Source: a virus. From it: a stretch of DNA of 64,000 nucleotides. This document shows, in pieces, positions 4,262-62,946 of the stretch. Location of the stretch: positions 1-64,000 of the IMG/VR virus record IMGVR_UViG_3300045996_001242; one strand, 5' to 3'. How positions within the stretch are numbered: position 1 is the first letter of the stretch; the number at the start of each line of letters is the position of its first letter. A program made the position numbers and the translations under genes. The notes under the pieces are model-generated. The model saw only the letters and a program-made list of their open reading frames with translations, was not told where the DNA came from and ran no database searches.

Positions 4262-4263
4262 GC

Positions 4264-6069: not shown

Positions 6070-6134
6070 GTGGTGGTGGGTCAGGAATATGGATATAATG
6101 ATTACCACAAAAATAAGCTGACGCAAGGCAGATA

Positions 6135-9409: not shown

Positions 9410-9411
9410 CC

Positions 9412-12306: not shown

Positions 12307-12309
12307 GTC

Positions 12310-13110: not shown

Positions 13111-13128
13111 TCACCATAGGAATTAGAC

Positions 13129-13533: not shown

Positions 13534-13536
13534 CCC

Positions 13537-14262: not shown

Positions 14263-14277
14263 TAAGGTCCTGTTATT

Positions 14278-14721: not shown

Positions 14722-14793
14722 TCTACAAAATCCGGTTGGTAATCCCAGCCGGATTTTGGTATGGATATTTCAGAAAATACGAGGTGACTCTTC

Positions 14794-15066: not shown

Positions 15067-15075
15067 TCCCGCCAA

Positions 15076-16200: not shown

Positions 16201-16204
16201 GCAC

Positions 16205-16519: not shown

Positions 16520-16607
16520 CATATTCACTGATAATCCCTGTGGTAATGCCCGCAGGATTTTGTTAGGTTGGTTCCAGAAAATTCCCAAAGTGATTTTGGA
16601 ACCATTT

Positions 16608-41604: not shown

Positions 41605-41925
41605 CAGGCCGGTTGCAACATCCGACATCGCCCACCGTGGATGCGGGAGCTACCCAGACCACGGGTCGGTTAAGGGACGGCCTGAACTGAAGAGCCCCCG
41701 ACGCGAGCTGAGGGGGGCAGCGCGTCGGGGGCGGACGTCAGGATCGAAGGTCGCACTGGGGGGGCAAAGCAGGGCGTTGGAGGACCTACCTAGCTGCCCG
41801 CCATCGATCCTGGCGCGGGAGGAGCTGCAGCGAAGCTTCATGGTCGTCCGCCCATGAGCCAGGTGAGAGTGCATCGCCGCAACGGGAGCCGTAACTGTGA
41901 TCCCGACTCATCGGTTCCGAACAAT
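41605..41925. ncRNA. Candidate large structured ncRNA (~320 nt)
   Basis: Consecutive stems 41605-11/41678-84 (nested CCGAC/GTCGG and CCGTGG/CCACGG), 41694-705/41721-32 (12 bp perfect), 41736-47/41804-15, and GAGCC-A-GGTGAG/CTCATC-GGTTC; no credible ORF. Confidence 0.55.
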
Positions 41926-41930
41926 TTTAG

Positions 41931-42050
41931 CTACTCGGGATCCTGCTGAGCTCGTTGCTCGATATCCTTGACCACCCACATGGCCCACATGCCGATCAGG
42001 AAACCCAGCGCGAGGCCGACAATCACGCCTCCGATGAACCATTCGATCAT
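41931..42050 (-). CDS. Small membrane peptide (39 aa), not in the ORF track
   Basis: MIEWFIGGVIVGLALGFLIGMWAMWVVKDIEQRAQQDPE; GAGGGGG RBS. Confidence 0.65.
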   Translation of the reverse strand: MIEWFIGGVIVGLALGFLIGMWAMWVVKDIEQRAQQDPE

Positions 42051-42074
42051 ATATTCGTGCCCCCTCGAACCCGG

Positions 42075-42437
42075 CTAAGCGACGTCACCAGTTAGCAAAA
42101 ACGACCTGAAGGCCGCAGTAAACTGTCCGTTATCCTCGAAGACCTCTATTTCGAGATCCTCGTCCGGGTAGGCCCAGAGCGGGTACGGCCGGCGGGCATT
42201 GAGCGGGCGCATCAGACGCACGAACTTGCCGCGGACCTTGAGCTGGACGTGGCCCATGGAGAGCGAGCCATCGGCTGGATCCTGGCGGATCCACCAACCT
42301 TGCTCGCTGCCGTCGCTGAGATCCTGGAGGCACTCCTCCATGTGCAGCTTCTCGAGGTTGAGGTAGAGCTGGCCCATGCACTTGAGGAGATTCCCCTCGT
42401 TGAAGAGGTCCCGGGGGATGACGCGGTTGTAGGTCAT
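42075..42437 (-). CDS. Hypothetical phage protein (120 aa)
   Basis: YNRVIPRDLFNEGNLLKC...RPLNARRPYPL; coupled to the upstream gene. Confidence 0.75.
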   Translation of the reverse strand: MTYNRVIPRDLFNEGNLLKCMGQLYLNLEKLHMEECLQDLSDGSEQGWWIRQDPADGSLSMGHVQLKVRGKFVRLMRPLNARRPYPLWAYPDEDLEIEVFEDNGQFTAAFRSFLLTGDVA

Positions 42438-42820
42438 GTCAGTGGATCCAGTATCACGTCCCTGCGTGCGTCCTCAATTTGGACCGCCCGCAGAGCCTTG
42501 ATGATGCGAATGTAGTAGCCCCTCGTGCCGACGACTCCGAATTCGCGGCCGATGGCGCCCTTCAGCACCTCTATCTCGGCAGCTGACGGCTCATAATCCG
42601 AGGTCAGCCGGCCGGTGTCATCGCGCTCGAGGTGGTTGAGGATCGTCGCAATGGTGCGGGCCTGGTAGTCGGCTTCGATCTCGGCCTTCTTGTCGGCGAT
42701 CTGCTCGTCGGACATGTTGGTCGGACAGAAGGCAGCGAACTCCCCGCCGAGTCCGAAGCCTCGGGTCTTGGCACGGCCGAAGACCTCGCCGTTGACCCAG
42801 AAGAGGGGTTTAAGCTTCAT
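42434..42820 (-). CDS. Hypothetical protein (128 aa)
   Basis: ATG right after the dUTPase stop; its stop overlaps the next start. Confidence 0.65.
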   Translation of the reverse strand: MKLKPLFWVNGEVFGRAKTRGFGLGGEFAAFCPTNMSDEQIADKKAEIEADYQARTIATILNHLERDDTGRLTSDYEPSAAEIEVLKGAIGREFGVVGTRGYYIRIIKALRAVQIEDARRDVILDPLT

Positions 42821-42821
42821 C

Positions 42822-43280
42822 TCACTTCCCCGTGGATCCAAGGCCGCCGGCATCACGCTGGGTGTCGCCGAGCTCGGGTACGTCGACGAAGACCGCCCGG
42901 AAAATCGGGACGATGACCAGCTGGGCGATGCGGTGACCAAAGTCGACGGTGAAATCCTGCGAGCTATGGTTGATCAGGATCACCTTGATCTCGCCGCGGT
43001 AATCGCTGTCGATGGTCCCGGGGGTGTTATTGATGCTGATGCCATGTTTGGCCGCCAGCCCGGAGCGGGGGCGGACCTGTGCCTCGAAGCCGAGGGGCAG
43101 CTCAATGGCGATGCCAGTGCCCACTACCCGCTGTCCGCCGGCTGGGATGACTGTACGCTCACTTGCGAAGAGATCGGCGCCAGCGGCCTCGGCTGAGGCG
43201 TAGAAGGGTACGTGAGCGTCCGAGTTCAGCCTCTTGAAGCGAACGTTGACGGTCGCGAGACCGTCGAGGGGGTTCCACAT
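42822..43280 (-). CDS. dut: Trimeric dUTPase
   Basis: AAGADL, RPRSGLA, GTIDSDYRGEI, RIAQ and RDAGGLGSTG motifs. Confidence 0.95.
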   Translation of the reverse strand: MWNPLDGLATVNVRFKRLNSDAHVPFYASAEAAGADLFASERTVIPAGGQRVVGTGIAIELPLGFEAQVRPRSGLAAKHGISINNTPGTIDSDYRGEIKVILINHSSQDFTVDFGHRIAQLVIVPIFRAVFVDVPELGDTQRDAGGLGSTGK

Positions 43281-43316
43281 TGTAACGATCCTGAAACGAT
43301 GTTGTAACGCTGGGGC

Positions 43317-43499
43317 CTAGCGTGGAGGCCCCAGCTCTCTGCTCTGTTCGTCCTGATTTTCCCTCAAAACCGCGTAGACGATTCCGGAGATAATCGAGGT
43401 GATTATCAGGAAAATCATTATCGGGATTAGGGCGAAGAAGGCGAACAGTCCGGCGGTGATGAGGCCCCCAATAACGAGGGCCCTGAGAAGGAGGTTCAC
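43317..43499 (-). CDS. Small membrane protein
   Basis: Long hydrophobic stretch; AT-rich coding sequence carrying GATAAT motifs. Confidence 0.55.
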   Translation of the reverse strand: MNLLLRALVIGGLITAGLFAFFALIPIMIFLIITSIISGIVYAVLRENQDEQSRELGPPR

Positions 43500-43509
43500 C
43501 TGGGCCGGC

Positions 43510-44037
43510 TTAGTTCGGCTTGCCGAGGTTGGCGAACAGTGACTTCGCCTTCACGGTCGGATCGACTTCCGCGGCCGGCGGGGGCGGCGGTGCCGAGGTC
43601 GAGACGTCAGGGAAGATCTTCGTCGTGGCCGTGACAGGCTTGGCCTTCGCTGGCTCCTGGACCGGCGCCGTCTCAGGCTTCGGCGGATCCACGTCGAACG
43701 GGGGTTCGTCCTTTACCTCTGGCTCAGGAGCTGCCTCGATCGTCGCGGCCGGCAGGGGTGCCGGAGCCGGAATGGGCTTGGTCGACCGGGGCTTGGAAGC
43801 CGGCTTGGTTGTGGGAGCGGGCTTCTCGGCCGGCAGATCCCCAGCCGTGCTGGTGATGTCGATGAAGCCGGCAAGGTCGCCCTTGTCGTCGTCGGCGAAT
43901 TCGACGTCGATCTTGGCATCCGGTGCGGCTGCCAGCTCGACCTTGGCTTTGATAAAGGCGAGGACAGCTTCCTTGAGCTCATCCTGGTTCAGGATGACCT
44001 GGGTGACCGTCACGACGCGGGCGGTGGAAATTTGCAT
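43510..44037 (-). CDS. Conserved N4-like protein with Pro-rich tail
   Basis: VILNQDELKEAV..FI N-terminus and KSLFANL C-terminus. Confidence 0.7.
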   Translation of the reverse strand: MQISTARVVTVTQVILNQDELKEAVLAFIKAKVELAAAPDAKIDVEFADDDKGDLAGFIDITSTAGDLPAEKPAPTTKPASKPRSTKPIPAPAPLPAATIEAAPEPEVKDEPPFDVDPPKPETAPVQEPAKAKPVTATTKIFPDVSTSAPPPPPAAEVDPTVKAKSLFANLGKPN

Positions 44038-46228: not shown

Positions 46229-48397
46229 TCAGGCTTCTCCCTGATACTTCTTGGCGACGGTGATCATGATGGTCGAGTCTACCTCTTGTTCGTCCATCGG
46301 GCTCGCCAATTTCTTGTTGAACGCATGAACTTGATCACGCACGGCGGGGAGCTCCCAGCCGGAGTCGACCAGGCAGAGGGCATACTTGATCATCTGGTTG
46401 TTACGGTTGCCGTTGCCGATGCGTTCGGCGAACCAGCGTTCCAGATTGTCGAGCGAGTCGAGCTGCTGGCTCTGCTTGCGCCGCTCTTCGTTCCGGCTCG
46501 TCTTGGGGATGAAGTAGGAGGCGTCGAGGAGCTTGCCCTCGTTGTAGTGGTAGGAGCCACCGTGGAACGACTCCGACTTCTTCTCCCGCTTGATGTAGCT
46601 CTCGTCGGTCCCGAAGGGGAGCCATGCGAAGATCCCTCGCATGAACTCCTTGTATTCCTCGTTGTCGAGCTCGAGCCGGTAGTTGATCGGCAGCAGCATC
46701 CGGAAGCGATCGCGGACCTCGCCATTCTCGTCCGGCACCTGATGACGCTTCGTCGTGTAGGTCAGGAACCTATAGTCCGCCATCAGCTCCTGAGCTGCCT
46801 GGAGGGAGATCCCTTCATCCACGTCGATGGCGATCATGTTGAAGCCGGCGATGACGTTCTCTTCGGCCCGGTGACCTTGCTTGAAGTGATGGTTGACCCA
46901 GTGCTTGCCCTCGGCTTGCGTGAGGACGTGCAGCTGGTCGAACGGCACCTCTTCGGTGAGATAGTCGTAGGCCCAGTGGTCCGAGTAGGAGACCACCATC
47001 TTCGATAGATCGGTCTCCTCGAGCGTCTCGCCCTTGAAGAACTCGATGCCGTCGACGAACGTCTTCTTGATGATGACGTTGTTCCGGTAGCCCCAGCCCA
47101 TCGCCAGCATCATCATGTCGTTCCGCGGGCTCTGGGCCCTCGGGTAGAAGGGAAGTTTCTCGTGGATGTCGGCGTGGGTCTGCTCCATGCCGACCTGGGC
47201 GATGTACTTGGCGAGCTTCACGTAGGTCATCTCGCGGCTGAGGATCTTCTGGAAGGCTGCCCCCGACTCCTCGACGAGCTTGATGGCTGCGTGGAGGTGG
47301 CTGAGCTCGATCAGCGTGGACCCATCGACGAAGGCGAAGGCGCCGGCGAGCTTGAGGGCCTTGGAGTGACGATGCTCCATCTCGGCCTTCTTGATCTCCT
47401 CGTGCTCGCCCATCTCGTGCGACAGCTTGAGGCAGTTGTCGTGGTATTCGATGAGCTCGATGCCGACGTCGTCGATGACTTCGACACGCCAGCCGAAGAT
47501 CGCCGGATCCGCGAGCTTCTCGAACACCTGATACCACTTGTTCACGGCCGCGCTGTTGGCCGGATCGATACGCATGGCGTACTTCTCCGCGGCCGAGAGC
47601 TGACCGCCGGCGAGCGACTTGGTGCCCATCCCGAAGATGCAGCGGCGGGCATAGCCGGTCTCGAGGAGCGAGTAGAACTCGGTCTCGGTCTGGCCGCCGT
47701 CGAAGAGCTTCGAGGGGGTGCCGAACAGCAGCATGTTGGTCGGGGTGGAGCCATCGAGCTCCTCGCCACGCTGGTTGTCGGAGGTGTTCTTCACCAACTT
47801 GATGTTGATGAGCCCGTTGTCATAGAGCTCGAGGAAGGCGGTGAGGACTTCCGTCTCGCGCAGGAGGTTCGAGCCGATCTCGTCGATCTGCATGTTGATC
47901 GATCCGGCGCCGGCGATGAGCAGCTTCTGACGCAGCTGCTTGACGGCAGGGGTGGTGCCCGAGTCGAAGGTGAAGGGGTAGGCGCCGTAGGAGCGGTACT
48001 CCTTGTTGACCTTGTCGAATTCTTCCTGCTGGTCGGTGCCGTTGCGGGCCGCCCGGTTGTTGGCGAGGACCCACATGTTCTGCTCGGCGATGACCGGCAG
48101 GGTGTCCTCCATGAAGCGGGTTTTGAAGCCCTTGAGGAGCTCGTTCTCCATCACATGGATCGAGTGACCCTTGCCGAAGCCGGATGGAGCCAGGCCAAGC
48201 GCATAGACGTTGACCGGCATCTCGCCGCGGTCCTTGGTGATGATCGTCGCACGCATGGTGCCGGCGATCTTGCCAATGAAGTAGGCGACCTCGGCCTGGA
48301 AGAAGCTACGGTCCTCCTGCTGGGTCTTGGCGCAGAGAACGTCGACGGTCTCGGTGATGACCGGGTGGTGCTGAACGGTGGCGAGATCAGGCAACAT
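46229..48397 (-). CDS. DNA primase (N4 gp43-like)
   Basis: APSGFGKGHS, FDSGTTPAVKQ, IAIDVD, YTTKRH and GNRNN; likely start MLPDL at 48397. Confidence 0.85.
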   Translation of the reverse strand: MLPDLATVQHHPVITETVDVLCAKTQQEDRSFFQAEVAYFIGKIAGTMRATIITKDRGEMPVNVYALGLAPSGFGKGHSIHVMENELLKGFKTRFMEDTLPVIAEQNMWVLANNRAARNGTDQQEEFDKVNKEYRSYGAYPFTFDSGTTPAVKQLRQKLLIAGAGSINMQIDEIGSNLLRETEVLTAFLELYDNGLINIKLVKNTSDNQRGEELDGSTPTNMLLFGTPSKLFDGGQTETEFYSLLETGYARRCIFGMGTKSLAGGQLSAAEKYAMRIDPANSAAVNKWYQVFEKLADPAIFGWRVEVIDDVGIELIEYHDNCLKLSHEMGEHEEIKKAEMEHRHSKALKLAGAFAFVDGSTLIELSHLHAAIKLVEESGAAFQKILSREMTYVKLAKYIAQVGMEQTHADIHEKLPFYPRAQSPRNDMMMLAMGWGYRNNVIIKKTFVDGIEFFKGETLEETDLSKMVVSYSDHWAYDYLTEEVPFDQLHVLTQAEGKHWVNHHFKQGHRAEENVIAGFNMIAIDVDEGISLQAAQELMADYRFLTYTTKRHQVPDENGEVRDRFRMLLPINYRLELDNEEYKEFMRGIFAWLPFGTDESYIKREKKSESFHGGSYHYNEGKLLDASYFIPKTSRNEERRKQSQQLDSLDNLERWFAERIGNGNRNNQMIKYALCLVDSGWELPAVRDQVHAFNKKLASPMDEQEVDSTIMITVAKKYQGEA

Positions 48398-49367
48398 AGT
48401 AGAGATCTTTCTGCTTGCAGGCGTTGAACGCCGGGCAGAACTCGCAGGCCCGCACCTCACCAGGGACGGCGATGACGGTGCCCTTACCCTTGCTCGCCAG
48501 GAAGGCGTGGGCTTCGGCTTTGTCATCGAAATTCTTGGTGGAGCGGCCCGAGGTTTTGCTCGCGTCGGCGTAGTATTTGTAGACGGTCTCCCCACGCCAA
48601 AGCTCCTTATCGGTGCATTGCGGGATCTGCTCGTCCGGGGCGTTCTGGTACTTCCTGAGCTCGCGCAGCTTGGCGATGATGAACTGCTCGGTGGCCTCGA
48701 TCGAGGGCAGCTCGACCGGGTACTCGATCGCCTTGGTCTGCGGGTAGTCAGGGTCGTTACGGGCCCGGGCCTTCTGCCAGTCGGTGAAGATGAACTGGAT
48801 GTAGATGTGGTCCGAGGTGATCAGCTCAGGGTTGAGCCAGCGATAGATGCCGCCCTGCCAGGCGTAGTCGTCGTCCTTGCGACCCAGGAGGTAGGCGTAG
48901 ACCGACGTCGACTTGGCATCGAACAGCCGGCCCTCGAGCACGAGGTCGTACTTGCCGCCGATCTTGTAGGTGACGCCGTCGACCTCGATCTCGCGGAAGG
49001 CCCGCTGCTCCATCCAGACCGGCACGATCGCCGGATTGGCGGCCACCTGTTCAGGTGTCGGGTTGACGATGATGTTGTTGGCGATGTGGTCGGGGTAGCC
49101 GAGCTTCTTCATCGCCCTGGTTCCCGAGACGGTCCACGCCTTCTCGATCGAGTCGTGGATGGCAGTGCCCATCCGCGAGGCAAGAAAGGCGCTGATGTCG
49201 AGCTCGCGCTCGTCCTGGTTCACCCGCCGGCCGAGGACCAGCTGACGAGTGCTCTTCAGCATGCTCGTCGCCGAGATGTAATTCGGCTCGTCGATGTAGT
49301 CGTATTCGTCGTGGAGGAGCCACACGGCGAGCGGCAGGCTGATGCCGTGGATGTTCGTCAGTTTCAT
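48387..49367 (-). CDS. PD-(D/E)XK exonuclease (N4 gp42-like)
   Basis: GTAIHD, GGKYDLV..LFDAKSTS, QGGIY and a C-terminal Cys cluster. Confidence 0.85.
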   Translation of the reverse strand: MKLTNIHGISLPLAVWLLHDEYDYIDEPNYISATSMLKSTRQLVLGRRVNQDERELDISAFLASRMGTAIHDSIEKAWTVSGTRAMKKLGYPDHIANNIIVNPTPEQVAANPAIVPVWMEQRAFREIEVDGVTYKIGGKYDLVLEGRLFDAKSTSVYAYLLGRKDDDYAWQGGIYRWLNPELITSDHIYIQFIFTDWQKARARNDPDYPQTKAIEYPVELPSIEATEQFIIAKLRELRKYQNAPDEQIPQCTDKELWRGETVYKYYADASKTSGRSTKNFDDKAEAHAFLASKGKGTVIAVPGEVRACEFCPAFNACKQKDLYYVA

Positions 49368-49391
49368 TGAGGCCTCGAGCTAGACCGGGAT

Positions 49392-49476
49392 TGGTGGAAA
49401 GCCGTGGTTCCGCCCCACTCCCCCGTAGGGATCGGATTTACAATCCGATTGCCGAAACTACCGGCTTTGGCTTTCC
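49392..49476 (-). tRNA. Non-canonical tRNA-Tyr(GUA), 8/4 fold
   Basis: GGAAAGCC AAA GCCG GUAGUUU CGGC A AUCGGA UUGUAAA UCCGAU CCC UACG GGG GA GUGG GGCGGAA CCAC GGCUUUCC A CCA: full cloverleaf, encoded CCA, A73, variable arm. Confidence 0.8.
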
Positions 49477-49497
49477 TGGATTTGGAGGGCACGAAGC

Positions 49498-49518
49498 CAG
49501 GGGGCGAAACGCCCCCTG
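49498..49518 (-). terminator. Hairpin between the DUF5664 gene and the tRNA
   Basis: CAGGGGGC-GAAAC-GCCCCCTG, 8-bp stem; may be a processing or stabilising stem rather than a terminator. Confidence 0.4.
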
Positions 49519-49552
49519 ACGTCATGGTGATTTTCTTGATAATCGGGTGGGA

Positions 49553-50104
49553 TTAAGGGTCCACCCAGGCGCCCCGTGGGAGAGGCAGGTTGAACTCTTT
49601 CTCGAGCTCTTCCTGCAGGAGCGCCAAAGCCCTCCAAGCCAAAGCAGCGCTCTCCCGGGTGTCCCCGTCGAAGCCGCCGCGGCCGGCGAGGTGCCTCATG
49701 ATGCAGTCGGCATGGTCCATGGACTTGCCGCGGGAGTGGTGCATCGGCTGGCCGGGATTATGCTTCTGGTTCCCGAGGTAGGAGATCCTGGCGACCTCGG
49801 CCAAGGCGTCCGGGAAATAGTCGAGGAGCCCAGCGGCCATCGGATACTGTTTGCGCTCGGCGCTGGTCGTCTCGAGGAGACGCTTACGCTGCGGAGCTGC
49901 CGGGGTGACGAGCGTCGGAGGAGTAATCTCCCCCTGGTAAACCGGCTCCATGTTGGCATGGTTCAAGGTGTCCTGGATCAGCTGCTCATTGAGCACGTCC
50001 AGCTTGATCCCGAGCACCGGCGGCTCACGATCGCGGCCGCACTCCAGGCATTTCCCATTAGCCCAGATGCAGTGGCCGTTGCAGTCATCAGCCTTGGCCA
50101 TCAC
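49553..50104 (-). CDS. dATP/dGTP diphosphohydrolase (DUF5664) domain protein
   Basis: LLDYFPDALAEVARISYLGNQKH, CIMRHL and LAWRALALLQ; N-terminal Cys-rich segment. Confidence 0.75.
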   Translation of the reverse strand: MMAKADDCNGHCIWANGKCLECGRDREPPVLGIKLDVLNEQLIQDTLNHANMEPVYQGEITPPTLVTPAAPQRKRLLETTSAERKQYPMAAGLLDYFPDALAEVARISYLGNQKHNPGQPMHHSRGKSMDHADCIMRHLAGRGGFDGDTRESAALAWRALALLQEELEKEFNLPLPRGAWVDP

Positions 50105-50667: not shown

Positions 50668-53352
50668 CTAAGCGGCGAGCTTCATCACGTGTCCCTCGAA
50701 GGCCTCGTAGATCTGAGCCTGGGAGGCATTGTTGGGGATCGAGATCTCCGAGCTCCAGTCGGGGTAGAAGATCGAGAACTCGCCCCCGAGCTTCACCTCC
50801 TCGTGCCAGATGTCCGGGTGGTTCTGCCACTCGCACGCCTTGACCAGGTGAGTGTTGGTGTACTCGATGGCGTCGACGTTGTCCCGGACCAGGCAGTAGT
50901 TGGCGTCGTGGATCTGGGCGCACGGCCGGATGTCGTGGCGGAACTCGCTCTTGCGGACCTTGCCGTAGAACTCAGAGCCCGCTCTCGAGTTGAGCAGGCA
51001 CCAGGACTGCCCGAGGGCGTTCCCCGCTGTACGGCCTTCCGCTTCAGCCTGGTAGGGCGTTTTGGTCGTGCCGAGCACCGTACGGTGCAGGAGCGGCGTC
51101 CGTACCCTCAGCCCGAAGGCCACGGTCACATAGCCGTCCTTGCAGGCCTGAGCCAGCTTCGCCTGGATCCAGTTGTCCGAGACCACGTAGAGCTCGTGGT
51201 AACTCTTCTCGACCGCCTTGGCTTTCGCTTCCGGCCAGCCTAGGGCGTTCATGATCCCCATATAGGTCCCGCCGTAGGTCAGGAGAAACGTCGGCACCTT
51301 CGAGTCCTGGCGCAGCGCCGGGTACTTCTCCTGGATCGAGTTGATCAGCTCGACCGTCATGTCGAGGTTCAGGAACGCCGGCATCTGGTCGGCGAAGTAG
51401 CTGTGGGCCCGCAACGAGTGGCCGTCATAGCCATCCGTATAGACCTTGAGCTTGTTCGGGTCCTTCGTGGTGAGCGCCGAGATCCGGTCCTCGAGGGATG
51501 CGAAGTCGATGCCGCAGAAGAACCAGCCCGGAGGCGCCTGGAAGCAGTATTTGATCAGCTTGCCCAGGCTCAGCTTGCCCTTCTTGGCGTACCGCTGGAG
51601 GAGCGGGAAGCGATCGAGGAGCGCCTGCATGATCTTCATCTCGACGTTGGCCGGGATGTTCTGGAGGTTCGGGTCGCTCGACGAGAGCCGTCCGGAGACG
51701 GTGCCGCCGAGGTTGAAGTTCCCGAACAGCCAGTGCCACCCGTCAGGCCCCAGCTGGGCGCCTTTGAGGGCCGGGATGAAGGTCTCGAGGATGGTTGCGA
51801 CAGCGCTGTATTCCATCAGCGCGGTCAGGAAGTCCTTCACCTCCTGGCTCTGGGCATGGTTGATCAGCTTCTCGAGAGTCTTGCCGCCGGTCGCCGGCTG
51901 CTTGGTGTCCGTCCGGTCGATGACCGGCAGCCCCAGGTCTTCGTAGAGGAGCTTCTGCAGCTGCGGACCCGAGTTCGGGTTGAACGTCACCTCTTTGCGA
52001 GTCGGCTCGTGGGTCTTGGCGAGCTCGCCCATCTCGGCGACGGTCATGCGCTTCTTGACCCACTCGGCGTTCATCTTCGCCGTGTAGGCCTCGAGACGCT
52101 GGTACTCGAACTGCTGGATCATCGGCAGCTGCAGCATCCTGGCCCGGGCGTCTTCGGAGAGCGTGAGCAGGATCTCTTCGACCTGCAGCACCCGCTCCAT
52201 GTTGACGGGCATGCCGGTCAGCTGCATCTGGATGATGTCGACGATCGCCGGCTTGAAGATCGTCTCGTAGATCTCGAGCTGGTTGTCCTTGACCATCCGC
52301 TGGTAGTGCTTCTCGTGGACGAACCAGGTCGAGAGACCATCGACGAGATTGTACTGCAGCAGCTGCGGCAGCGGGATCTTGCGGATGTCCTTGATGTCTT
52401 CCTGGGCATAGTCCCCGGCGTATTCCTGGGCCTGGATCTTGAGCTTGAGCTCGTTCTTGCCGGCGCAGGAATTGGTGGCCAGGTACGTGATGAGCTTAGT
52501 GTCGTCCCAGTTGCGCAGCATCACCTCGAGCCCATGCAGGAGCCCCTCGTTGTCGAGCAGGTCCTTCATGAACAGCTGGTAGATCAGCACGTAAACGTCG
52601 AAGCTGATGTTGTGGTAGATGGCCTTGCGCTTGAAGCGCTCGAAGAAGCTCCTCAACAGGGTCCGGCAGGCCGCCGAGTAGGCAGGGTCGTCGAGGATGT
52701 CGACCGGGAAGCAGATCCCCTCTGACTTCGACCAGGAGAACGAGATCGTCCCGATGCCGGCCGAGTAGTGCTTGAGCGAGAAGGTCTCGGTGTCGATTGC
52801 CAGGTCTTTGTCCATGTCGAGCAGGCGCTCGAGCCAGAGGGAGATCTCCTGGATCGTCTGGGGGTACTCGCAGAACTTGATGATATCGATGCCGGGATCG
52901 GTGTAGGTCCCCAGCATCCAGCGGATCAGGGCGTTGATGCTGGTGTTGATCTTTTGGGGCACCTTCACCGGATCGTAGTAGATCGAGAGGTAGGCGGGCA
53001 CGTAGACCAGGTGCCAGTCGCCGAACTCGGTAGCGAAGACGTAGCCGAGCACCGGGTCGATCTTCTGGACCTTGGTGAAGGTCTTGAAGTAGTCGCCGTC
53101 AGCGACGATGAGGTACTGGACGCCGAGCCCCTCGAGGGTCGGCTTGAGCTCGTCGAGGATGTACTGCTTGCGCTCGGCGGCCGGGGTGCTCTTCTTGCCG
53201 GGGCTCTGGTGGAGGGTGATGACGATGATGTCGTCTTCCCTGAGCCCGTAGGGCGTCACGTATGCCCGGAGGATTTCGTCCCTTTTGATCTCGTTGACGA
53301 GGATGGCGATCTTGTAGGTGGGCCGCTCAGGGCCGAAAGTCAGGTATCGCAA
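50668..53352 (-). CDS. Family A DNA polymerase (N4 gp39-like)
   Basis: Exo AIDTETF, GTVSGRLSSSDPNLQN, motif A DFASLE, motif B RQDSKVPTFLLTYG, motif C QIHDA; TTG start. Confidence 0.95.
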   Translation of the reverse strand: MRYLTFGPERPTYKIAILVNEIKRDEILRAYVTPYGLREDDIIVITLHQSPGKKSTPAAERKQYILDELKPTLEGLGVQYLIVADGDYFKTFTKVQKIDPVLGYVFATEFGDWHLVYVPAYLSIYYDPVKVPQKINTSINALIRWMLGTYTDPGIDIIKFCEYPQTIQEISLWLERLLDMDKDLAIDTETFSLKHYSAGIGTISFSWSKSEGICFPVDILDDPAYSAACRTLLRSFFERFKRKAIYHNISFDVYVLIYQLFMKDLLDNEGLLHGLEVMLRNWDDTKLITYLATNSCAGKNELKLKIQAQEYAGDYAQEDIKDIRKIPLPQLLQYNLVDGLSTWFVHEKHYQRMVKDNQLEIYETIFKPAIVDIIQMQLTGMPVNMERVLQVEEILLTLSEDARARMLQLPMIQQFEYQRLEAYTAKMNAEWVKKRMTVAEMGELAKTHEPTRKEVTFNPNSGPQLQKLLYEDLGLPVIDRTDTKQPATGGKTLEKLINHAQSQEVKDFLTALMEYSAVATILETFIPALKGAQLGPDGWHWLFGNFNLGGTVSGRLSSSDPNLQNIPANVEMKIMQALLDRFPLLQRYAKKGKLSLGKLIKYCFQAPPGWFFCGIDFASLEDRISALTTKDPNKLKVYTDGYDGHSLRAHSYFADQMPAFLNLDMTVELINSIQEKYPALRQDSKVPTFLLTYGGTYMGIMNALGWPEAKAKAVEKSYHELYVVSDNWIQAKLAQACKDGYVTVAFGLRVRTPLLHRTVLGTTKTPYQAEAEGRTAGNALGQSWCLLNSRAGSEFYGKVRKSEFRHDIRPCAQIHDANYCLVRDNVDAIEYTNTHLVKACEWQNHPDIWHEEVKLGGEFSIFYPDWSSEISIPNNASQAQIYEAFEGHVMKLAA

Positions 53353-54038: not shown

Positions 54039-55403
54039 TTAGGGGAGGGCGAGCCCTCCGTATTTGGCGGCCAGGTCCCCATAGAGGAAGACCCGGGTGC
54101 GGGCCCGAGAGAACGCTACGTAGAGCATACGGGCGACCTGCTGGGGCTGGTGGCAGGTGCTGATGTTGCCGAGGTCGACGAACACCGTGTCGTAGGTCGA
54201 GCCCTGCGACTTATGCACCGTCGCCGCGTCTCGCGGGCGAAGGTCCGCGATGTTGTTCTTGAGGTAGAAGTACGGCGTCCATTGCTTGGTGCGGGAGTAG
54301 TACCGAACCAGATCGTCGAAGTGCTGACGATCGGTCATCACCGGGACCTCATAATAGGAGTTCCCCAGGGAGTCCTGGATGTCGACGTGGTCGATATCGA
54401 GGTAGACGTCGTGGGTCTTGTCGATGAGGATCTTGCTGGCGCCGCGGTTGCGGAGGACCTCGACCTCAGTCTCGATCGGGACCTGGCCCCGCTTGTGGTG
54501 GATGACTGAGCTCGTGACCAGGTATTCGCCCTTGGTGTAGCTATCCGGCAGCTGGCGGATCGAGCGGATGTGGTTGTTGTACTCGATCACCCGCTTGTTG
54601 GTGTAGGCGAGGATGCGGGCCGCATGCGTCTGCTTCCCGAACTGTGCCTGGATCTCGGCCTGCATCTGCGCTCCATCGAGCAGGTCGATGACGCCGGGAA
54701 CCACCTGGATCGGATTGAACTGGCCGGTCGCCACGGTGTCTCTCAGCTGCTGGCAGATGCCCATCAGTGCCGGCTGGCCGGCATTGCGGACGGGCTCGAG
54801 TAGCTCGACCATCGGCGAGTCGTGCTTGTAGACCGGCGACAGGTCCTCCTGGACGGGAGCCAGCTGATGGCGATCCCCGACATAGACGAGCTTGCAGTTG
54901 ATGGTGCCTTCGTGGAGCATCTTCCAGAGCTCGGTGTCGATCATCGAGCTCTCGTCGATGAAGATGATCTTGCCGTGGTGGACCATCCAGCGGTTGGTCT
55001 TCTTGACGATCGACTTGCCCGTCGAATAGTCGTCCTTGACCGTGAGGTTGAAGAACGAATGCACGGTCCCCGCCGGCCGGCTGACGCTCTGCGAGAGCAC
55101 CTCGGCCGCCTTGTTCGTGGTCGCTGTCATGACGACGCCATCGAACAGGGGGTGGATCCCGACCAGCGCGCACATCTCGTGGTAGCGCGGCATCGTGTTG
55201 TCGATGATGTAGTTCATCAGGTAGGTCTTGCCGACGCCGGCGGGCCCCGAGATGATGAATTCCTTGTCCTCGCTGAAGAGGAACTCCATGAAGGCGTCGG
55301 CGGCTGCCTTCTGCCCCTGGTTCAGATTGTACTGCTTGGGTGCCGGAGGAGCTGCGACGCCCGGGTAGGTCATCGCGATGGTGCTGGCGGTGGCGGAGGG
55401 CAT
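54039..55403 (-). CDS. SF1 (Dda/RecD-like) DNA helicase
   Basis: GPAGVGKT, FIDESSM, GDRHQLAPV, TVHKSQGSTY and YVAFSRA. Confidence 0.95.
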   Translation of the reverse strand: MPSATASTIAMTYPGVAAPPAPKQYNLNQGQKAAADAFMEFLFSEDKEFIISGPAGVGKTYLMNYIIDNTMPRYHEMCALVGIHPLFDGVVMTATTNKAAEVLSQSVSRPAGTVHSFFNLTVKDDYSTGKSIVKKTNRWMVHHGKIIFIDESSMIDTELWKMLHEGTINCKLVYVGDRHQLAPVQEDLSPVYKHDSPMVELLEPVRNAGQPALMGICQQLRDTVATGQFNPIQVVPGVIDLLDGAQMQAEIQAQFGKQTHAARILAYTNKRVIEYNNHIRSIRQLPDSYTKGEYLVTSSVIHHKRGQVPIETEVEVLRNRGASKILIDKTHDVYLDIDHVDIQDSLGNSYYEVPVMTDRQHFDDLVRYYSRTKQWTPYFYLKNNIADLRPRDAATVHKSQGSTYDTVFVDLGNISTCHQPQQVARMLYVAFSRARTRVFLYGDLAAKYGGLALP

Positions 55404-55493: not shown

Positions 55494-55679
55494 CTAGAGC
55501 GTGTCGTAGATCCTCTCGACGTCCTCACGGGCCATCTCGGGGTGCGACAGCATCATCTGCCCGATGACCCATGATCGCCTCTGAGCGTCGATCTCGGCCT
55601 TGGTCATCGGCGGCCTGTTCCGAACCTCGGCCAGCAATCGAGCCAGCTCGGGGTCCATTGGAATGGGCTCACTCAGCAT
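55494..55679 (-). CDS. Small hypothetical protein (61 aa)
   Basis: MTKAEIDAQRRSWV motif; overlaps the H-NS stop. Confidence 0.6.
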   Translation of the reverse strand: MLSEPIPMDPELARLLAEVRNRPPMTKAEIDAQRRSWVIGQMMLSHPEMAREDVERIYDTL

Positions 55680-56103
55680 CGGCGATCAGGAACTGCTCGC
55701 GGTCTTTGCCGCGGATCCAGACGGGCTCTTTGCCGCGGCCCGACCAGGTCGCCCCGCTGGCGGGATCCCGGTACTTCTGGATCGCCTTCTGGCCCTTGCG
55801 CTTGATCTTGAGACCGCCCAGGGCGTCGACGAGCTCGTCGATCGGGATGTCGTAGCTATGGACGACGCTCACGATCTGCTCGATGACGGCCCGCTTCTCG
55901 GCCTGCTGCTTCTCGAGGATCTTCCGCTGGATCTCGTCCTGCTGACGTTGCAGGTCCTCGAGGGTCATGTCAGAGGTCGGGTCGTCAGGCGCTTCCATCT
56001 GTACCTCCTTCATGTTGCTGGGGGTGGTGGTTGCCTCGTCGGCGTTGAAGACGAGGCGCTGCGTGCGGACGGCAGGTTCTTCACGAACTTCTTGCTCGGT
56101 CAT
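55669..56103 (-). CDS. hns: H-NS family nucleoid-associated/silencer protein
   Basis: N-terminal coiled coil plus KYRDPASGATWSGRGKEPVW (H-NS signature TWxGxGRxP); alternative strong start at 55998. Confidence 0.85.
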   Translation of the reverse strand: MTEQEVREEPAVRTQRLVFNADEATTTPSNMKEVQMEAPDDPTSDMTLEDLQRQQDEIQRKILEKQQAEKRAVIEQIVSVVHSYDIPIDELVDALGGLKIKRKGQKAIQKYRDPASGATWSGRGKEPVWIRGKDREQFLIADAE

Positions 56104-56221
56104 TTGTTGCTCCTGGCCTACGTGGCCGTGGCAGATAAGTCGGTTTCTGAGACGCACCCTTTTCGGGTTTCGATTTTGGAGTCAAGAGATATTCGAGATA
56201 TCTCTTAAACTTTCCTGAAAA

Positions 56222-58142: not shown

Positions 58143-58415
58143 CTAAGCCGCATCCGGTAGCTCCAGCGGGATGATCTCCAGCGTCGTCCGCGGGAAGTTC
58201 TGCGTGACCCGAATCGTGAACGGCATGCCGCCGGGGTAGTCGTTCTGCCATTCCATGAGCATGGTCTCTATGTTGCTCAGGATCTCGGGCACACGGGCCT
58301 CGTTGTGGAACTCCCTCGAGAGCGGGCCGAGGTTGAGGCGGGCTTGCTTCCGCCTCTCGTATGGGTCGACGTAGCCGGCCTCCTTGGCGAGTGCCAAATC
58401 CTCGTTGAAGCTCAT
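58143..58415 (-). CDS. Hypothetical protein (90 aa)
   Basis: AGGAG RBS; start coupled to the GcrA stop. Confidence 0.65.
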   Translation of the reverse strand: MSFNEDLALAKEAGYVDPYERRKQARLNLGPLSREFHNEARVPEILSNIETMLMEWQNDYPGGMPFTIRVTQNFPRTTLEIIPLELPDAA

Positions 58416-59008
58416 CGACTGGTTCTCCTTGTCTGGAATAGGCGGCCCCGATGGTTGGGGCAGTAGCGTGGGTGGCCTTCGGTCCCGTGGCCGCAGAAGA
58501 GGTGCCGTTCCCCTGGAGCTGGTTCGTTGATGCCCCAGTGGCACTGGTTGGGGCCGAGCTCCCAGAGTGCGAGCTTGAGCGCCGTCCGGTCATAGGCGAG
58601 GTTGACCTCGGCGACCGGCACCTTGGCCGGCTGCTGGACCTCGCCCCGCACGTAGTTGAGCTTCTTGCGCTTGCGCTTCTCGAGGCGCGGAGCGTGCTGG
58701 CGAGGCAGCTTGTTGCCGTGCTCGTCTCGCAGCTGGCGCTGACCGGGCACACCACCTCCGCCCAGCGGATAGCTGATCCTGAGCTCGGGAACGCGGGTGT
58801 AGAAGCCCATGATCGAGTTGCGGGTCACCTGCGAGCCGGTGAGCTTGGTGAGGGTGACCGCAAGGGTCTTGGCGGAACAATTCTCGTTCCAGTTTTCGGT
58901 GATGAGCGCGACGCGATCTTCGCGGCTCAGGTCTGGCCAATGCAACATCTGGTCATTCGATTTCTGGAGTGGGGGAGGCCCGGCAGAAACCGCCGGGTGG
59001 TTGATCAT
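58412..59008 (-). CDS. gcrA: GcrA-like cell-cycle transcription factor
   Basis: N-terminal EDRVAL..ENW..CSA...VTRNSIMG HTH and C-terminal LWELGPNQCHWGI...FCG...YCPNH match the two GcrA domains. Confidence 0.85.
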   Translation of the reverse strand: MINHPAVSAGPPPLQKSNDQMLHWPDLSREDRVALITENWNENCSAKTLAVTLTKLTGSQVTRNSIMGFYTRVPELRISYPLGGGGVPGQRQLRDEHGNKLPRQHAPRLEKRKRKKLNYVRGEVQQPAKVPVAEVNLAYDRTALKLALWELGPNQCHWGINEPAPGERHLFCGHGTEGHPRYCPNHRGRLFQTRRTSR

Positions 59009-60219
59009 TCGTGTAGGTGGACGATGGTCCCGTGCGGCACTTCGGCCTTCCGGTTATTGAGGGCGACCCAGATGATCGGGACGTGCGCCAGGTCCGCGGG
59101 AAGCGGGTGCATGGGATCGCACTGCAGGTCCGAGAAGATGACGACAGCGGTCGGCTTGTGCTCGATGATGTGCTCGCGCACGCAGACCAGCGAGGTGCCG
59201 CCGCGGCCGACGATCTTCACCTCGTCGACTTCGTCCTCCTCGAGGAAGACGTCTTCCTTCTGGATCTGCTCGTCGAACTGGACCATCGTCATCTTCTTCG
59301 GCTTGAAGTAGTCGTGGACGTACTTGAATTCCGAGTTGAATCTGATGGCGTCGCCGTCCGAGATCGAGCCGGAGACGTCCTCATAGTAGATGACGTGGTC
59401 GAGGCCGTTGTACTCTTCCATGAGGTCCGGCAGGTACATGTCCTGGTAGCGCCGGTTGGGGCGGGCCCAGCTGTAGTCGTGGCCGCCCAGCTCGTTGAAG
59501 AACTGGAAGAGCGCCTTGTCCCAGTCGATCTTGGGAGCAAGGAAGCGCTTCAGCGTCGTCTCGATCTCTCCGGGGATGCTGCCGCCGGCGAGCTGTGCCT
59601 GGTGGGCGGCCGAGATGACGTTGTTGAGGACCTGATGCTGCAGCGCGGCTGCGACGTCGACCTCATCTGGCTCCACGAGGTCGCCGACAAGATCGCCGAG
59701 TCCGGTCTCCGGGTTGGTCAGCCAGGGAGTTGACCAGGGCATGGCGGGGGCATTGCCCTGGCCTTGGGCCTGGTGTTTGGCGATGAGCTCGTCGCGGATC
59801 CTGACGATGTCGTCATAGACGTCCTCGGTGACCCAGCCCTCGTAGTCGAAGTTGAACCAGGGCTTGAAGCCTTTGAAGCTCTTGCCCTCGCGGATCAGTG
59901 TGTTGTTGATCAGGATGTCGGCCGCGTAGTTCCAGATCTCATGCTCCCTGGATCCACAGCGCAGCATGTCAAGCCGCGCTGGGTGCCAGAGCTCATGGAG
60001 GAGGATGGTCTCGCGGACCTCCGGCAGCAGCGAGAGGAAGAACCGAGGGTTCCACCAGAGCGTCACGCCGTTGGTGCAGGCCGTCTGTATGTCCTCGACC
60101 CAGGAGAAGTTCATCGAGCACATCAGCGGGCCGAGGAAGGCGGCGTTGCTGTTGAGGAACACCTTGGTCTTGGTGCGGTCGAACTCACGTTCGAGCAGCG
60201 TGTAGTCGATCTCGGTCAT
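59005..60219 (-). CDS. vWA/metallopeptidase-like protein (N4 gp25-like)
   Basis: TACTNG, LHELWH, WNYAADILIN, MIDAS DVSGS and GRGGT. Confidence 0.9.
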   Translation of the reverse strand: MTEIDYTLLEREFDRTKTKVFLNSNAAFLGPLMCSMNFSWVEDIQTACTNGVTLWWNPRFFLSLLPEVRETILLHELWHPARLDMLRCGSREHEIWNYAADILINNTLIREGKSFKGFKPWFNFDYEGWVTEDVYDDIVRIRDELIAKHQAQGQGNAPAMPWSTPWLTNPETGLGDLVGDLVEPDEVDVAAALQHQVLNNVISAAHQAQLAGGSIPGEIETTLKRFLAPKIDWDKALFQFFNELGGHDYSWARPNRRYQDMYLPDLMEEYNGLDHVIYYEDVSGSISDGDAIRFNSEFKYVHDYFKPKKMTMVQFDEQIQKEDVFLEEDEVDEVKIVGRGGTSLVCVREHIIEHKPTAVVIFSDLQCDPMHPLPADLAHVPIIWVALNNRKAEVPHGTIVHLHE

Positions 60220-61658
60220 TTCCTGTCCTTCTTCTTGAGCCAGGGCTTATGACCCTCGCCCGCCATGATGGTGCCGGCCGGGATGACCTCGTCGACGATG
60301 GTGGCGAGATCGAACTTCGTGATCTGGCGACGCACCTCATCGGGCCGCTTGTAGGCACTGGGCAGCTCCGAGATGTCGGGCTTGCCGCAGTAGAAGCGGA
60401 CGTCGAGGCCCTGCGTCTCACGGTCGATGATCGTCTGCAGGTCTCGTGGCGAGATCCCTCGTGCGTCGGACGGGAACTCCTCGAGCAGGCGCTTCATGTG
60501 CGCGGTGCGCGAGAGGTTCCTGCCGGCGCCGTGTGGTGCGAAGCCCAGACCGTCGATCGGTCGGCGATCGTTCGGCATGGTGATCAGGATCGGCTGCCCC
60601 ATGTTCAGTGGGATCAGCATCTGCCCGCAATCGTCATTGGCGTAGCCGTAGTAGGACGGCGTCGAGCCCTTGGCATGATAGAAGAGCCCGTCGGCCCGTC
60701 TGAAGACGAAGTTGTGCTCGTTCCAGAAGCGGCCGACGATGGCGTTGCCAAGTCGCTGCTGCATGGCGTCGTGGATCGCGTAGTGGTTGAGCTTGGTCCA
60801 CTCGCGGACCAGCTGCAGGGCTTCCCAGTAGTCGTGGCCTTCCTGCGAGTTGGCATCGATCCAGGCTGCTGCCTTGGGCGTCCGTGGCGAGACGATCGAG
60901 GTGTGCTTCTCGGCCACAGCTTTACCACGGCGATAGACCTCGGCGCCGAAGCCTCGAGATCCATGGTGGGTGACGATCGCCAGCTGTCCGGTCGACTTGA
61001 GGTGGCCCACGAAAAAGAAGTGGTTGCCATCGCCCTGGGTCATAAATTGGCCAATGGCACGGTCCTCGAGCCCGGCAGTGAAGCGGTTTTCTGGCAGGCG
61101 GTCGATCAGCCCGGCGAACTGGGTGTCCCGGCCGTAGGCGGCCAACTGCTGCCGCGGCTGGTTGCCGAAGTGCGTCGTCTGCATGGCGACGTCGAGGACC
61201 CGGCTGACGTCCATGTCCCGCTTGAAGACGGTGATGGCCATCGAGCAGCAGGCGTCCTCGGAGTGGAAGCCCGGATGGATCGCGTCTTTGGTTGCAACCA
61301 CACCACCAACCGGGATGACGCCGGCAGCCGGACAGGCATCCGGCATGACGGCGGCGTGCATCACGGTGGGGGTGCGGACGAGCTCGTCCATCTGCCGGAC
61401 GACGCCGGCGTAGTTGACCACCTCGTCGTCGGTCTCGGCCTCGAGGAAGATGCCGAAGGGGATCGAGTTGGTGCGCAGCTGCAGCGCAGGGTCGAGTTCA
61501 GGCTCGCGAGGCTTGTAGTTGTTGGAGATGAACTCGCGGATCTCGTCGAGGGGGTACTTCCCCAAGACAGTGTTGCCGAATTCGATCGCCTCTTTGAACC
61601 AGGGGCCAGGCTTGAAGCCCCAGGCGATGAGCGTCTCGCCGGTGATCTTATCGGTCAT
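60216..61658 (-). CDS. rtcB: RtcB-family RNA ligase
   Basis: VMPDAC, IPVGG, DACCSM, GDGNHF, HHGSRG, EHN, HAKG, IPLNM, PHGAGR and ELPSAYK; start MTDKITG with GAGGA RBS. Confidence 0.9.
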   Translation of the reverse strand: MTDKITGETLIAWGFKPGPWFKEAIEFGNTVLGKYPLDEIREFISNNYKPREPELDPALQLRTNSIPFGIFLEAETDDEVVNYAGVVRQMDELVRTPTVMHAAVMPDACPAAGVIPVGGVVATKDAIHPGFHSEDACCSMAITVFKRDMDVSRVLDVAMQTTHFGNQPRQQLAAYGRDTQFAGLIDRLPENRFTAGLEDRAIGQFMTQGDGNHFFFVGHLKSTGQLAIVTHHGSRGFGAEVYRRGKAVAEKHTSIVSPRTPKAAAWIDANSQEGHDYWEALQLVREWTKLNHYAIHDAMQQRLGNAIVGRFWNEHNFVFRRADGLFYHAKGSTPSYYGYANDDCGQMLIPLNMGQPILITMPNDRRPIDGLGFAPHGAGRNLSRTAHMKRLLEEFPSDARGISPRDLQTIIDRETQGLDVRFYCGKPDISELPSAYKRPDEVRRQITKFDLATIVDEVIPAGTIMAGEGHKPWLKKKDRK

Positions 61659-61876
61659 TGGGTTTCCTCTTTGATGACGGCCTCGACCTTGGCGATGGCA
61701 GCCTCGAGCGTGTCGAAGGTGCCCATCTGCGGGTTCACGGGCAGCCCAGCGTGATCGTTGACGATGAACCGTCCGTGGTAGACCTGGATGCTCAGGTGCG
61801 GGTGTTCGACGCACTGGTAGGTATCGTCGACCGAGTCATCCTCGGCGGGGGTGAAGACGTAGGTCGGCCGACTCAT
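61655..61876 (-). CDS. Hypothetical protein (73 aa)
   Basis: GTFDTLEAAIA motif; coupled at both ends. Confidence 0.65.
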   Translation of the reverse strand: MSRPTYVFTPAEDDSVDDTYQCVEHPHLSIQVYHGRFIVNDHAGLPVNPQMGTFDTLEAAIAKVEAVIKEETQ

Positions 61877-62946
61877 GCTGCCACTGCGGTCGGAGTCGTG
61901 GTCGGCAGATCGTCGTGCAGATACCTCGAGATATCGACCAGGGAGCGCCGCCAGGCCGGGTGCAGCTTCAGGTCGGGCTTCTGAATCATCAGCCCGCGGA
62001 AGAAGATCACCCGCATCTCGGCGGTGAACTTGGCGATGTAGGTGGAGACCGCGTCGAAGCTGTCCCCATCGACGTGTTCGATCAGATGGGTGACCGTCGC
62101 CCAGCGGGTCGCGGCATCTTGCGGCACGTCGATCCCGTTCGGGTCCCTGACGATCTCCTGGAATCTCGGCAGAGTGGCATAGACCTTGGTGAAGGTGATG
62201 AACTCGACGGCAACGCCCGAGGTGATGGCGCCGGCATAGAGAGCTGCATCAGCTTCGACGACCTCCTGATCCTTGATCAGCTTGTTCATGAACTCCCAGG
62301 TCCGCGGCGAGCAGAAAGTCTTCTCGTTGTGGTCGGGCCGGAAGTCGTGTAAGGCGCCCTTTTTGTAGTTGAGGTAGGCGATGATGCGGCTGTCCCAGCG
62401 CTGGGGAAGGGCCACGTCCTCCATGAACTCCTGATGGTCGAGGATCATCTCGAGGGTGATGAGGCGGCTCTGCATGGCCGTCGAGAGCGGATTGACGATC
62501 GCCCGGTCGGTGGTGAGGTTGCCGGCGGCGACGATCACCACGTTGGGGTGGAGCTTGGCCAAGCCGACCATCTTATCGAGGACGAGCTTATAGGCCGCGG
62601 CCTGCACCATCTTGCTGGCCGAGTTGAACTCGTCGAGGAAGATCATCCAGCCCTGGTAACCGTCCGGGATCTTCGTGCCTTCAGTCGGGAAGGTATCGAA
62701 CGGCGCGAAGGTGGCGGTGCCGTCCTCCTTGAACCTGGGGAGACCGGTGAGATCCTCCGGCGCCGAGGTCGAAAGTCGATGATCGATCAGCTTGAGGCCG
62801 TACTCGTCGGCGATCGACTTGACGACGGCGCTCTTGCCGATGGCCGGCGAGCCCTGGAGGAAAGGAACCAGGCCCGCCAGCATGCAGCGGACGATGAACC
62901 TGCGTGCCTGGCGAGGTGTGACTTTGTAGGCGGAAATGCCCGACAT
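61873..62946 (-). CDS. MoxR-like AAA+ ATPase (N4 gp24-like)
   Basis: GSPAIGKS, IFLDEFN, VAAGN, AMQSRL and SPRTW. Confidence 0.9.
   Translation of the reverse strand: MSGISAYKVTPRQARRFIVRCMLAGLVPFLQGSPAIGKSAVVKSIADEYGLKLIDHRLSTSAPEDLTGLPRFKEDGTATFAPFDTFPTEGTKIPDGYQGWMIFLDEFNSASKMVQAAAYKLVLDKMVGLAKLHPNVVIVAAGNLTTDRAIVNPLSTAMQSRLITLEMILDHQEFMEDVALPQRWDSRIIAYLNYKKGALHDFRPDHNEKTFCSPRTWEFMNKLIKDQEVVEADAALYAGAITSGVAVEFITFTKVYATLPRFQEIVRDPNGIDVPQDAATRWATVTHLIEHVDGDSFDAVSTYIAKFTAEMRVIFFRGLMIQKPDLKLHPAWRRSLVDISRYLHDDLPTTTPTAVAA

Follow-up and report, generated by a model that had tools for sequence, protein, structure and literature searches.

A candidate tRNA-Tyr-like gene with an 8/4 cloverleaf and a non-canonical core in an N4-like soil phage

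In the genome of a soil phage related to coliphage N4 we found an 85-nt element that folds as a complete class II tRNA cloverleaf with a tyrosine anticodon, and in which most bases of the canonical tRNA tertiary core are replaced. It is presented here as a candidate gene, represented by a single orphan sequence in a low-coverage soil assembly. The virus record is 77.6 kb long and is rated complete by CheckV; the window, by which we mean the whole stretch of DNA analysed, covers 64 kb of it. The element lies on the sense strand of a 185-nt spacer between a diphosphohydrolase-like gene and an exonuclease gene, within the N4-like replication module of the phage, where every gene lies on the minus strand (Table 1). 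The ribosome-binding site of the exonuclease gene, GAGG, lies about 12 nt past the element, and neither a U-tract terminator nor a minus-strand sigma-70-like promoter was found around it. An open reading frame of 53 amino acids overlaps the element (49364-49525) and was taken as non-coding, as it has no Shine-Dalgarno sequence and falls within an insertion that is absent from relatives. Genes for a protein with an H-NS C-terminal domain and for a GcrA-like protein, located in the early/middle region (55669-56157 and 58412-59008, both on the minus strand), point to an alphaproteobacterial host for the phage.

Table 1. Position of the tRNA-Tyr-like element, its parts and the neighbouring or associated genes (window coordinates)
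Feature	Position	Strand	Remarks
85-nt non-canonical tRNA-Tyr-like gene	49392..49476	-	Cloverleaf including encoded ACCA; minimum-free-energy fold, strict scan, ARAGORN -mt
Acceptor stem, 5' strand GGAAAGCC	49469..49476	-	8 Watson-Crick pairs with 49396-49403
Linker AAA (3 nt)	49466..49468	-	Replaces U8-N9; no U8; read from the sequence
D arm	49451..49465	-	Stem GCCG/CGGC, loop GUAGUUU; A-G at canonical G18-G19
Anticodon arm	49431..49449	-	6-bp stem AUCGGA/UCCGAU, loop UUGUAAA; U33 and A37 kept
Class II variable region	49419..49430	-	CCC-UACG-GGG hairpin with UNCG-type cap, then G-A
T arm	49404..49418	-	4-bp stem GUGG/CCAC, G53-C61 kept; loop GGCGGAA (G54 G55 C56 G57 G58)
Acceptor stem, 3' strand GGCUUUCC, with discriminator A73 and encoded CCA	49392..49403	-	
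G+C-rich intergenic hairpin	49490..49526	-	11-bp core, UUU loop; directly upstream of the element; fold and alignment
Exonuclease, phrog_2139, Cas4-like	48387..49367	-	Downstream gene
dATP/dGTP diphosphohydrolase-like protein, PF18909 (N-terminal domain, MazZ-like)	49553..50104	-	Upstream gene
Family A DNA polymerase	50668-53352	-	Replication module
Dda-like helicase	54039-55403	-	Replication module
phrog_5974 protein		-	Replication module
Primase, Sak4-like annealing protein, SSB		-	Same replication module
RtcB RNA ligase, phage-type, PF01139 (100 bits), phrog_1075	60216..61814	-	Probable start at an internal ATG near 61658

The four-arm cloverleaf is both the minimum-free-energy and the centroid structure of the minus strand at 49392-49476, and it is retained when the element is folded in a 221-nt context. 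Its free energy of -40.8 kcal/mol lies well below that of shuffled sequences (-26.3 +/- 3.3, z = -4.45), none of 200 shuffles being as stable. All 25 pairs are Watson-Crick, 18 of them G-C; the three hairpin loops have 7 nt each, and ACCA follows directly on the acceptor stem. The acceptor and T stems form a helix of 12 bp that is split 8/4, and a 7/5 reading would require an A-G pair at 49-65. The D stem has 4 bp, or 5 if a G-U pair is counted, which leaves a D loop of 5-7 nt. Every structural statement of an earlier sequence-only reading of this DNA, from the 8-, 4- and 6-bp Watson-Crick stems and the individual loops to the A73-CCA end, was thus reproduced.

Bacterial TyrRS recognises its tRNA by the GUA anticodon, A73, G1-C72 and the class II variable arm. 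The complete set can be read off the element (G34-U35-A36, with the anticodon at 49439-49441, A73, G1-C72 and the variable arm), as the sequence-only reading had noted, and its variable region can be aligned to that of canonical tRNA-Tyr from phages. The anticodon loop is regular, with 7 nt, U33 and a purine at 37, and the discriminator is followed by CCA. The canonical tertiary features that are kept are only C56, R57, G53-C61 and one D-loop G. To judge from the sequence, a reversed Levitt pair, U15-A48, may form.

Standard tRNA finders pass over the element, as the sequence-only reading had expected, because most of the "universal" core bases of a tRNA are absent. ARAGORN reports no tRNA gene and no tmRNA in the window, even with its thresholds lowered to 60% (-ps60). 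Rfam gives no match to tRNA or tRNA-Sec (RF01852) at E <= 10 in a 501-nt search and no tRNA across the whole record, the element scoring below the gathering score of RF00005, and the known tRNA-like RNAs (YrlA Y RNA, the tRNA-like domain of tmRNA and other Rfam families) do not match it either. The metazoan-mitochondrial mode of ARAGORN, in which the canonical loops are not required, calls mtRNA-Tyr(gta) at exactly 49476..49392, with a different and worse fold of the T arm.

To place the element among cloverleaves in general we used a strict scanner, which accepts a site only if every pair is Watson-Crick, the acceptor and T stems add up to 12 bp in a 7/5 or 8/4 split, the T loop and the anticodon loop both have 7 nt, the latter with U33 and purine 37, and the D arm and variable region are of ordinary size. 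The element is its sole match in the 77.6-kb genome. Scanning 60 block-shuffled genomes on both strands (9.3 Mb) yielded no match, even when CCA was not required, and scanning 1.68 Mb of real phage DNA yielded 84, of which 83 are tRNAs called by ARAGORN and the last has a Phe anticodon. These results indicate that a cloverleaf this good is in practice a tRNA gene. That ARAGORN and Rfam both miss a gene of this grade implies that phage tRNA counts are underestimates. Separately, we observed at L126 4390-4465 (minus strand), in a phage tRNA cluster, an all-Watson-Crick 7/5 cloverleaf with the loop CUGAAAA (Phe GAA) that is unreported by ARAGORN.

The combination of intact stems and an altered core does not fit decay. 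We counted 11 tertiary core positions (U8, A14, R15, G18, G19, A21, Y48, U54, U55, C56 and A58), and nine of these differ in the element, only G19 and C56 being kept. Under a uniform-mutation model of neutral decay, the joint probability that all 25 pairs are kept while at least 7 of the 11 tertiary positions are changed reaches a maximum of ~1e-7, and so stays <1e-6 at any divergence. The element is not a decayed tRNA. Because the probability is so small at every divergence, the stems are under selection or were until very recently, and the sequence is very probably that of a selected tRNA-derived gene. The earlier argument from the intact stems therefore holds, and gains from the changed tertiary positions.

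We compared the element with tRNA genes by means of a covariance model built from its sequence alone. Canonical class II tRNAs of phages, tRNA-Tyr included, align with this model over its full length at 25-33 bits, scores that are inflated since the loci had been picked for the same anticodon-stem core, and that Ser/Leu-type genes reach similarly; an 85-nt alphaproteobacterial tRNA-Tyr scores 33.7 bits. Canonical class II tRNA-Tyr(GUA) genes of phages and Alphaproteobacteria (e.g. L144 6889-6972 and L504 1501-1585) have the same length of 85 nt and the same order of arms, and they share with the element the anticodon-stem core CGGA/UCCG, a short capped variable-arm hairpin and the ACCA end. 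They differ from it in the 7/5 split, U8, A14, G18G19, A21 and a T loop of the UUCGAAU type, all of which are changed in the element. The UNCG-type cap is not peculiar to it, since the variable arm of ordinary phage tRNA-Tyr genes often ends in a UNCG or GNRA cap.

The 8/4 split sets the element apart from the canonical tRNA-Tyr genes. Natural 8/4 tRNAs have been recorded for Ser, His, Cys and Sec, with tRNA-Ser and tRNA-His in phages of Alphaproteobacteria (Mukai et al., NAR 2017, PMC5389517), which agrees with what the sequence-only reading had stated. When we required that nucleotide 8 pair with 65 while 49-65 is unpaired, seven of 659 ARAGORN-called phage tRNAs were 8/4-capable (two Cys, two His, two Ser and one Met) and none was a tRNA-Tyr; the Cys, His and Ser cases match the 8/4 classes already described (PMC5389517). 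The seven come from L084, L104, L144, L174 and L271, and the Met case may be new.

The (8/4) tRNA-Ser and tRNA-His and the allo-tRNAs have in common with the element the 12-bp helix split 8/4, a long variable arm and a 6-bp anticodon stem, and the first two likewise occur in alphaproteobacterial phages, as would the element in a phage with such an inferred host. The identities are different, being Ser with G73 or U73 for the allo-tRNAs and His, Cys or Sec for the other classes, as against A73 and GUA here. The described 8/4 tRNAs were found by their resemblance to a tRNA-Sec model and have a long D stem with a tetraloop, whereas the element matches neither tRNA-Sec nor tRNA in Rfam and combines a D arm of 4-5 bp and a 5-7-nt loop with a T loop that is not of the T-Psi-C type. 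Function in translation is possible for such architectures: 8/4 tRNAs work in E. coli translation (PMC5389517), and tRNA-Pyl, which lacks G18G19 and T-Psi-C, and type II mitochondrial tRNAs function without these elements (review PMC7609411). Together with tRNA-Sec, these RNAs resemble the element in lacking some or all of G18G19, T-Psi-C and U8-A14 and in having 6-bp anticodon stems (PMC7609411); they differ in identity and in their partners (PylRS; SelA/SelB; mitochondrial factors), and tRNA-Pyl also in its 3-nt variable loop and 1-nt linker.

The elbow had been described in the sequence-only reading as completely rewritten, a description that is apt for the inner core but not for the outer corner. 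In a sample of 734 unique ARAGORN-called tRNAs from phage loci, eight have G55 in the T loop (UGC... or AGC...). The D loop of each of these eight contains A-G, and in six it has no GG, as compared with 25 GG-less D loops among the other 724 tRNAs (Fisher p = 9e-8). The element carries both halves of this covarying pattern, namely ..UAG.. in the D loop and GGC at 54-56, so its outer corner fits the alternative A18/G55 plus G19:C56 arrangement that recurs in other phage tRNAs. The alternative tRNAs replace G-G by A-G and have G55-C56 in the T loop just as the element does, but they keep the 7/5 split, U8, A14, A21 and U/A54...A58 (with A58, A14 and A21 in 8/8), and they are called by ARAGORN. 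In the element, G54, G58, G14, U21 and the linker AAA stand in place of these bases, and there is no U8-A14-A21 layer, so that U8, A14, A21 and the U54-A58 pair are all gone. As this goes beyond what is seen in the alternative elbows, the L-shape and the use of the RNA by EF-Tu and the ribosome are uncertain. We have found no earlier 8/4 candidate for tyrosine than the element, whose inner core is stripped further than in the alternative-elbow tRNAs.

The alternative A18/G55 type was observed at L213 10205-10279, L122 2310-2383, L144 6806-6881, L147 4146-4221, L178 4480-4636, L183 1994-2066 and L273 19812-19893. The one at L273 is a tRNA-Tyr, which has a variable arm capped by UUCG, of the UNCG type as in the element, and lies at most 10 kb from a phage RtcB gene; the identities in L213, L144, L147, L122, L178 and L183 are Val, Ile, Arg and Pro. 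A second class, consisting mostly of Arg tRNAs, has U56 in a UUU T loop and G-A in the D loop, which looks like a swap to A19:U56.

The spacer that holds the element is itself conserved among relatives. An alignment of spacers and upstream regions shows an equivalent G+C-rich hairpin at the same position, within a common layout of an AT-rich motif, the hairpin, a CCnAAAUCC-like motif, the RBS and the start codon. The extra ~85-90 nt between the CCnAAAUCC-like motif and the RBS are seen in this phage alone. The alignment thus shows, by comparison with the spacers of relatives, that the element came into this phage lineage by insertion, which added ~85-90 nt to a spacer that is otherwise conserved in the replication module. 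The layout with the CGATTWTCAAGAAAAT-like AT-rich motif, the hairpin and CCnAAATCC was observed at 49490-49560 of the window (minus strand) and at the same place in L001, L003, L004, L007 and L014; it has no U-tract, and it may represent a middle promoter together with a stabiliser or attenuator.

Homologues of the element were sought by position, by sequence and by structure. Among the relatives of the flanking exonuclease, comprising 80 IMG/VR and 80 metagenome loci at 45-87% amino-acid identity, the element is missing ahead of the exonuclease gene in every case; the closest metagenome relatives by exonuclease protein (identity of at most 83%) are among those without it. A nucleotide search of the 80 related loci (nhmmer) gave no match. 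The covariance model, which detected the element in the phage's own genome as a positive control, found no homologue in the related loci and the records of 53 relatives (30 of them at least 90% complete), with scores only at the level of canonical class II tRNAs, and nothing above canonical tRNA-Tyr in 151 alphaproteobacterial genomes. Loop-anchored patterns with free stems retrieved only canonical tRNA-Tyr genes or chance matches from IMG/VR, and a strict three-loop pattern retrieved nothing from the metagenome and genome collections. With a looser pattern, no cloverleaf was present among the at least 120 matches listed from the genome collection, which were mostly a conserved protein-coding motif. 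For the collections searched, then, the element is a single orphan sequence with no homologue.

A second gene of the phage may bear on the element. RtcB seals breaks with 2',3'-cyclic-phosphate and 5'-OH ends, the kind left by tRNA nucleases. The phage carries an RtcB gene as an accessory gene, absent from its five closest relatives and placed between an N4-like AAA ATPase gene (61873-62946) and a DUF2201/VWA gene (59005-60219). The long extra segment at the N-terminus of the protein, noted earlier as a feature of it, is probably an artefact of calling the longest open reading frame, given the internal ATG ahead of the conserved part. The link between this gene and the element is circumstantial: tRNA-Tyr genes are not enriched near phage RtcB genes (1/77), and no non-canonical cloverleaf was found near the RtcB genes of 80 other phages.

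The sequence-only reading had also pointed to tRNA-Tyr as the target of the PtuAB effector of retron Ec78, and the literature bears this out: the PtuAB of retron-Eco7 (Ec78) and Septu degrade tRNA-Tyr, and a phage tRNA-Tyr rescues infection (PMC11555353, PMC13096335). The cut made by PtuAB/Septu is in the variable arm of tRNA-Tyr (PMC13096335) and not in the elbow, so the suggestion that the element was reshaped to escape elbow-recognising nucleases finds no specific support. The element, a candidate tRNA-Tyr, resembles the tRNA-Tyr genes of T5 and T6, which keep tRNA-Tyr available against retron-Eco7 and Septu, in being phage-borne; those genes are canonical and located in tRNA-rich regions of coliphages, whereas the element is non-canonical. 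Tyr accounts for ~1.7% of the phage codons, 75% of them UAC (a rough count on a rough gene set), and since Tyr codons are not conspicuously frequent there is no obvious motive in codon usage.

We tentatively favour the reading that the element is a real, selectively maintained non-canonical class II tRNA-Tyr(GUA), or a surrogate of it, that works in translation; this may well be so, though we stop short of calling it probable. On this reading the element would be co-transcribed with the replication genes on the sense strand, having no detectable promoter or terminator of its own. RNase P would cut at G1, a step helped by the CCA, by the 12-bp helix and by the G19:C56 corner that is retained, and on the 3' side endo- or exonucleases would remove everything beyond the encoded CCA. 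The RNA would then be charged by the host TyrRS, because it has GUA, A73, G1-C72 and a variable arm of the short class II kind. Once charged it could supply or replace tRNA-Tyr during infection, either decoding UAY or acting as a surrogate or decoy when tRNA-Tyr is under attack. The most plausible setting would be a nuclease of the host or of a competitor that depletes tRNA-Tyr, to which the accessory RtcB ligase might be a second, repair-based answer.

That the cloverleaf is a chance fold or an assembly artefact is highly improbable. The only sequencing run with a good match to the element is the apparent source soil metagenome, where it is covered at a depth of ~3-4x, no Logan contig extends over 49417-49472, and no RNA run is listed among the runs that match the element; such low coverage would speak for an artefact. 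Assembly errors, however, do not build folds with 25/25 Watson-Crick pairs, three 7-nt loops and ACCA abutting the acceptor stem, and shuffled sequence failed to produce a comparable cloverleaf. It is harder to dismiss, if still unlikely in our estimate, that the element is a mimic of tRNA acting outside translation, whether as a decoy or sponge or as a punctuation and stabiliser element for RNase P or RNase E. As a sponge it could occupy a defence nuclease directed at tRNA-Tyr or some other tRNA-binding host factor, for which there is a precedent in the partial shielding of host tRNA-Tyr from Septu by overexpressed phage tRNA-Tyr (PMC13096335). As punctuation it would separate the upstream message from the exonuclease-primase message. 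The place inside an operon, 12 nt before the RBS of the next gene, and the lack of a separate promoter or terminator speak for a mimic. So does the loss of the inner core bases that modification enzymes and canonical folding use, and some natural 8/4 allo-tRNAs are indeed inactive in translation, or charged yet unused (PMC5389517). Yet a pure processing signal needs neither a 7-nt anticodon loop with U33 and A37, nor the Tyr identity set, the class II arm and the A18/G55-G19:C56 corner, and in relatives the same spacer works without the element.

The strict orphan status of the element, absent from every spacer examined in relatives (amino-acid identity of at most 87% in the flanking gene) and from the records of the 53 relatives, speaks for a functionless hitch-hiker, that is, a non-canonical tRNA or tRNA-like gene that evolved under selection in some other, unsampled genome and was inserted here by chance, so recently that it has not decayed. 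We regard this as an improbable origin, less likely than a mimic, since phage genomes are compact, the stems are perfect and undamaged, and the insertion was made precisely between the hairpin and the RBS and on the sense strand.

The translational reading can be taken one step further, to a rather doubtful but specific form. The element would then be an 8/4 tRNA-Tyr with a minimal core that is charged, decodes UAY and is a poor substrate for tRNA-Tyr nucleases, with RtcB as a back-up by repair; with similar doubt, it would have kept only those features that TyrRS, RNase P, EF-Tu and the ribosome need, whether it evolved in the phage lineage or was captured. If this were true, tyrosine would gain its first 8/4 tRNA, and bacterial translation a natural class II tRNA with a minimal core. 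Should the RNA be made and charged, the 8/4 architecture would reach a fifth amino acid, and the element would reveal how large a part of the "invariant" tRNA core is dispensable in bacterial translation. Such a result would matter for tRNA biology, for the design of orthogonal tRNAs and for the contest over tRNAs between phages and defence nucleases.

Some features of the genome were noted apart from the element. The MazZ-like neighbour suggested a Z-genome phage, which was ruled out as the genome has no PurZ-like adenylosuccinate synthetase. A tyrosine integrase gene (PF00589) lies just outside the window at 65171-66319 of the genome (minus strand; L517 2171-3319), and IMG/VR classes the record of the relative L003 as a provirus; the N4-like clade of this phage may therefore be temperate. 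A Pfam scan of the genes absent from the relatives G002 and G003 showed neither an aminoacyl-tRNA synthetase nor a tRNA nuclease. The blocks without a counterpart in these two relatives (window 460-6134, 9410-17363 and 41629-44036; genome 71714-75155) are large and mostly without a Pfam match, and the one at 9410-17363 includes an open reading frame of 964 amino acids.
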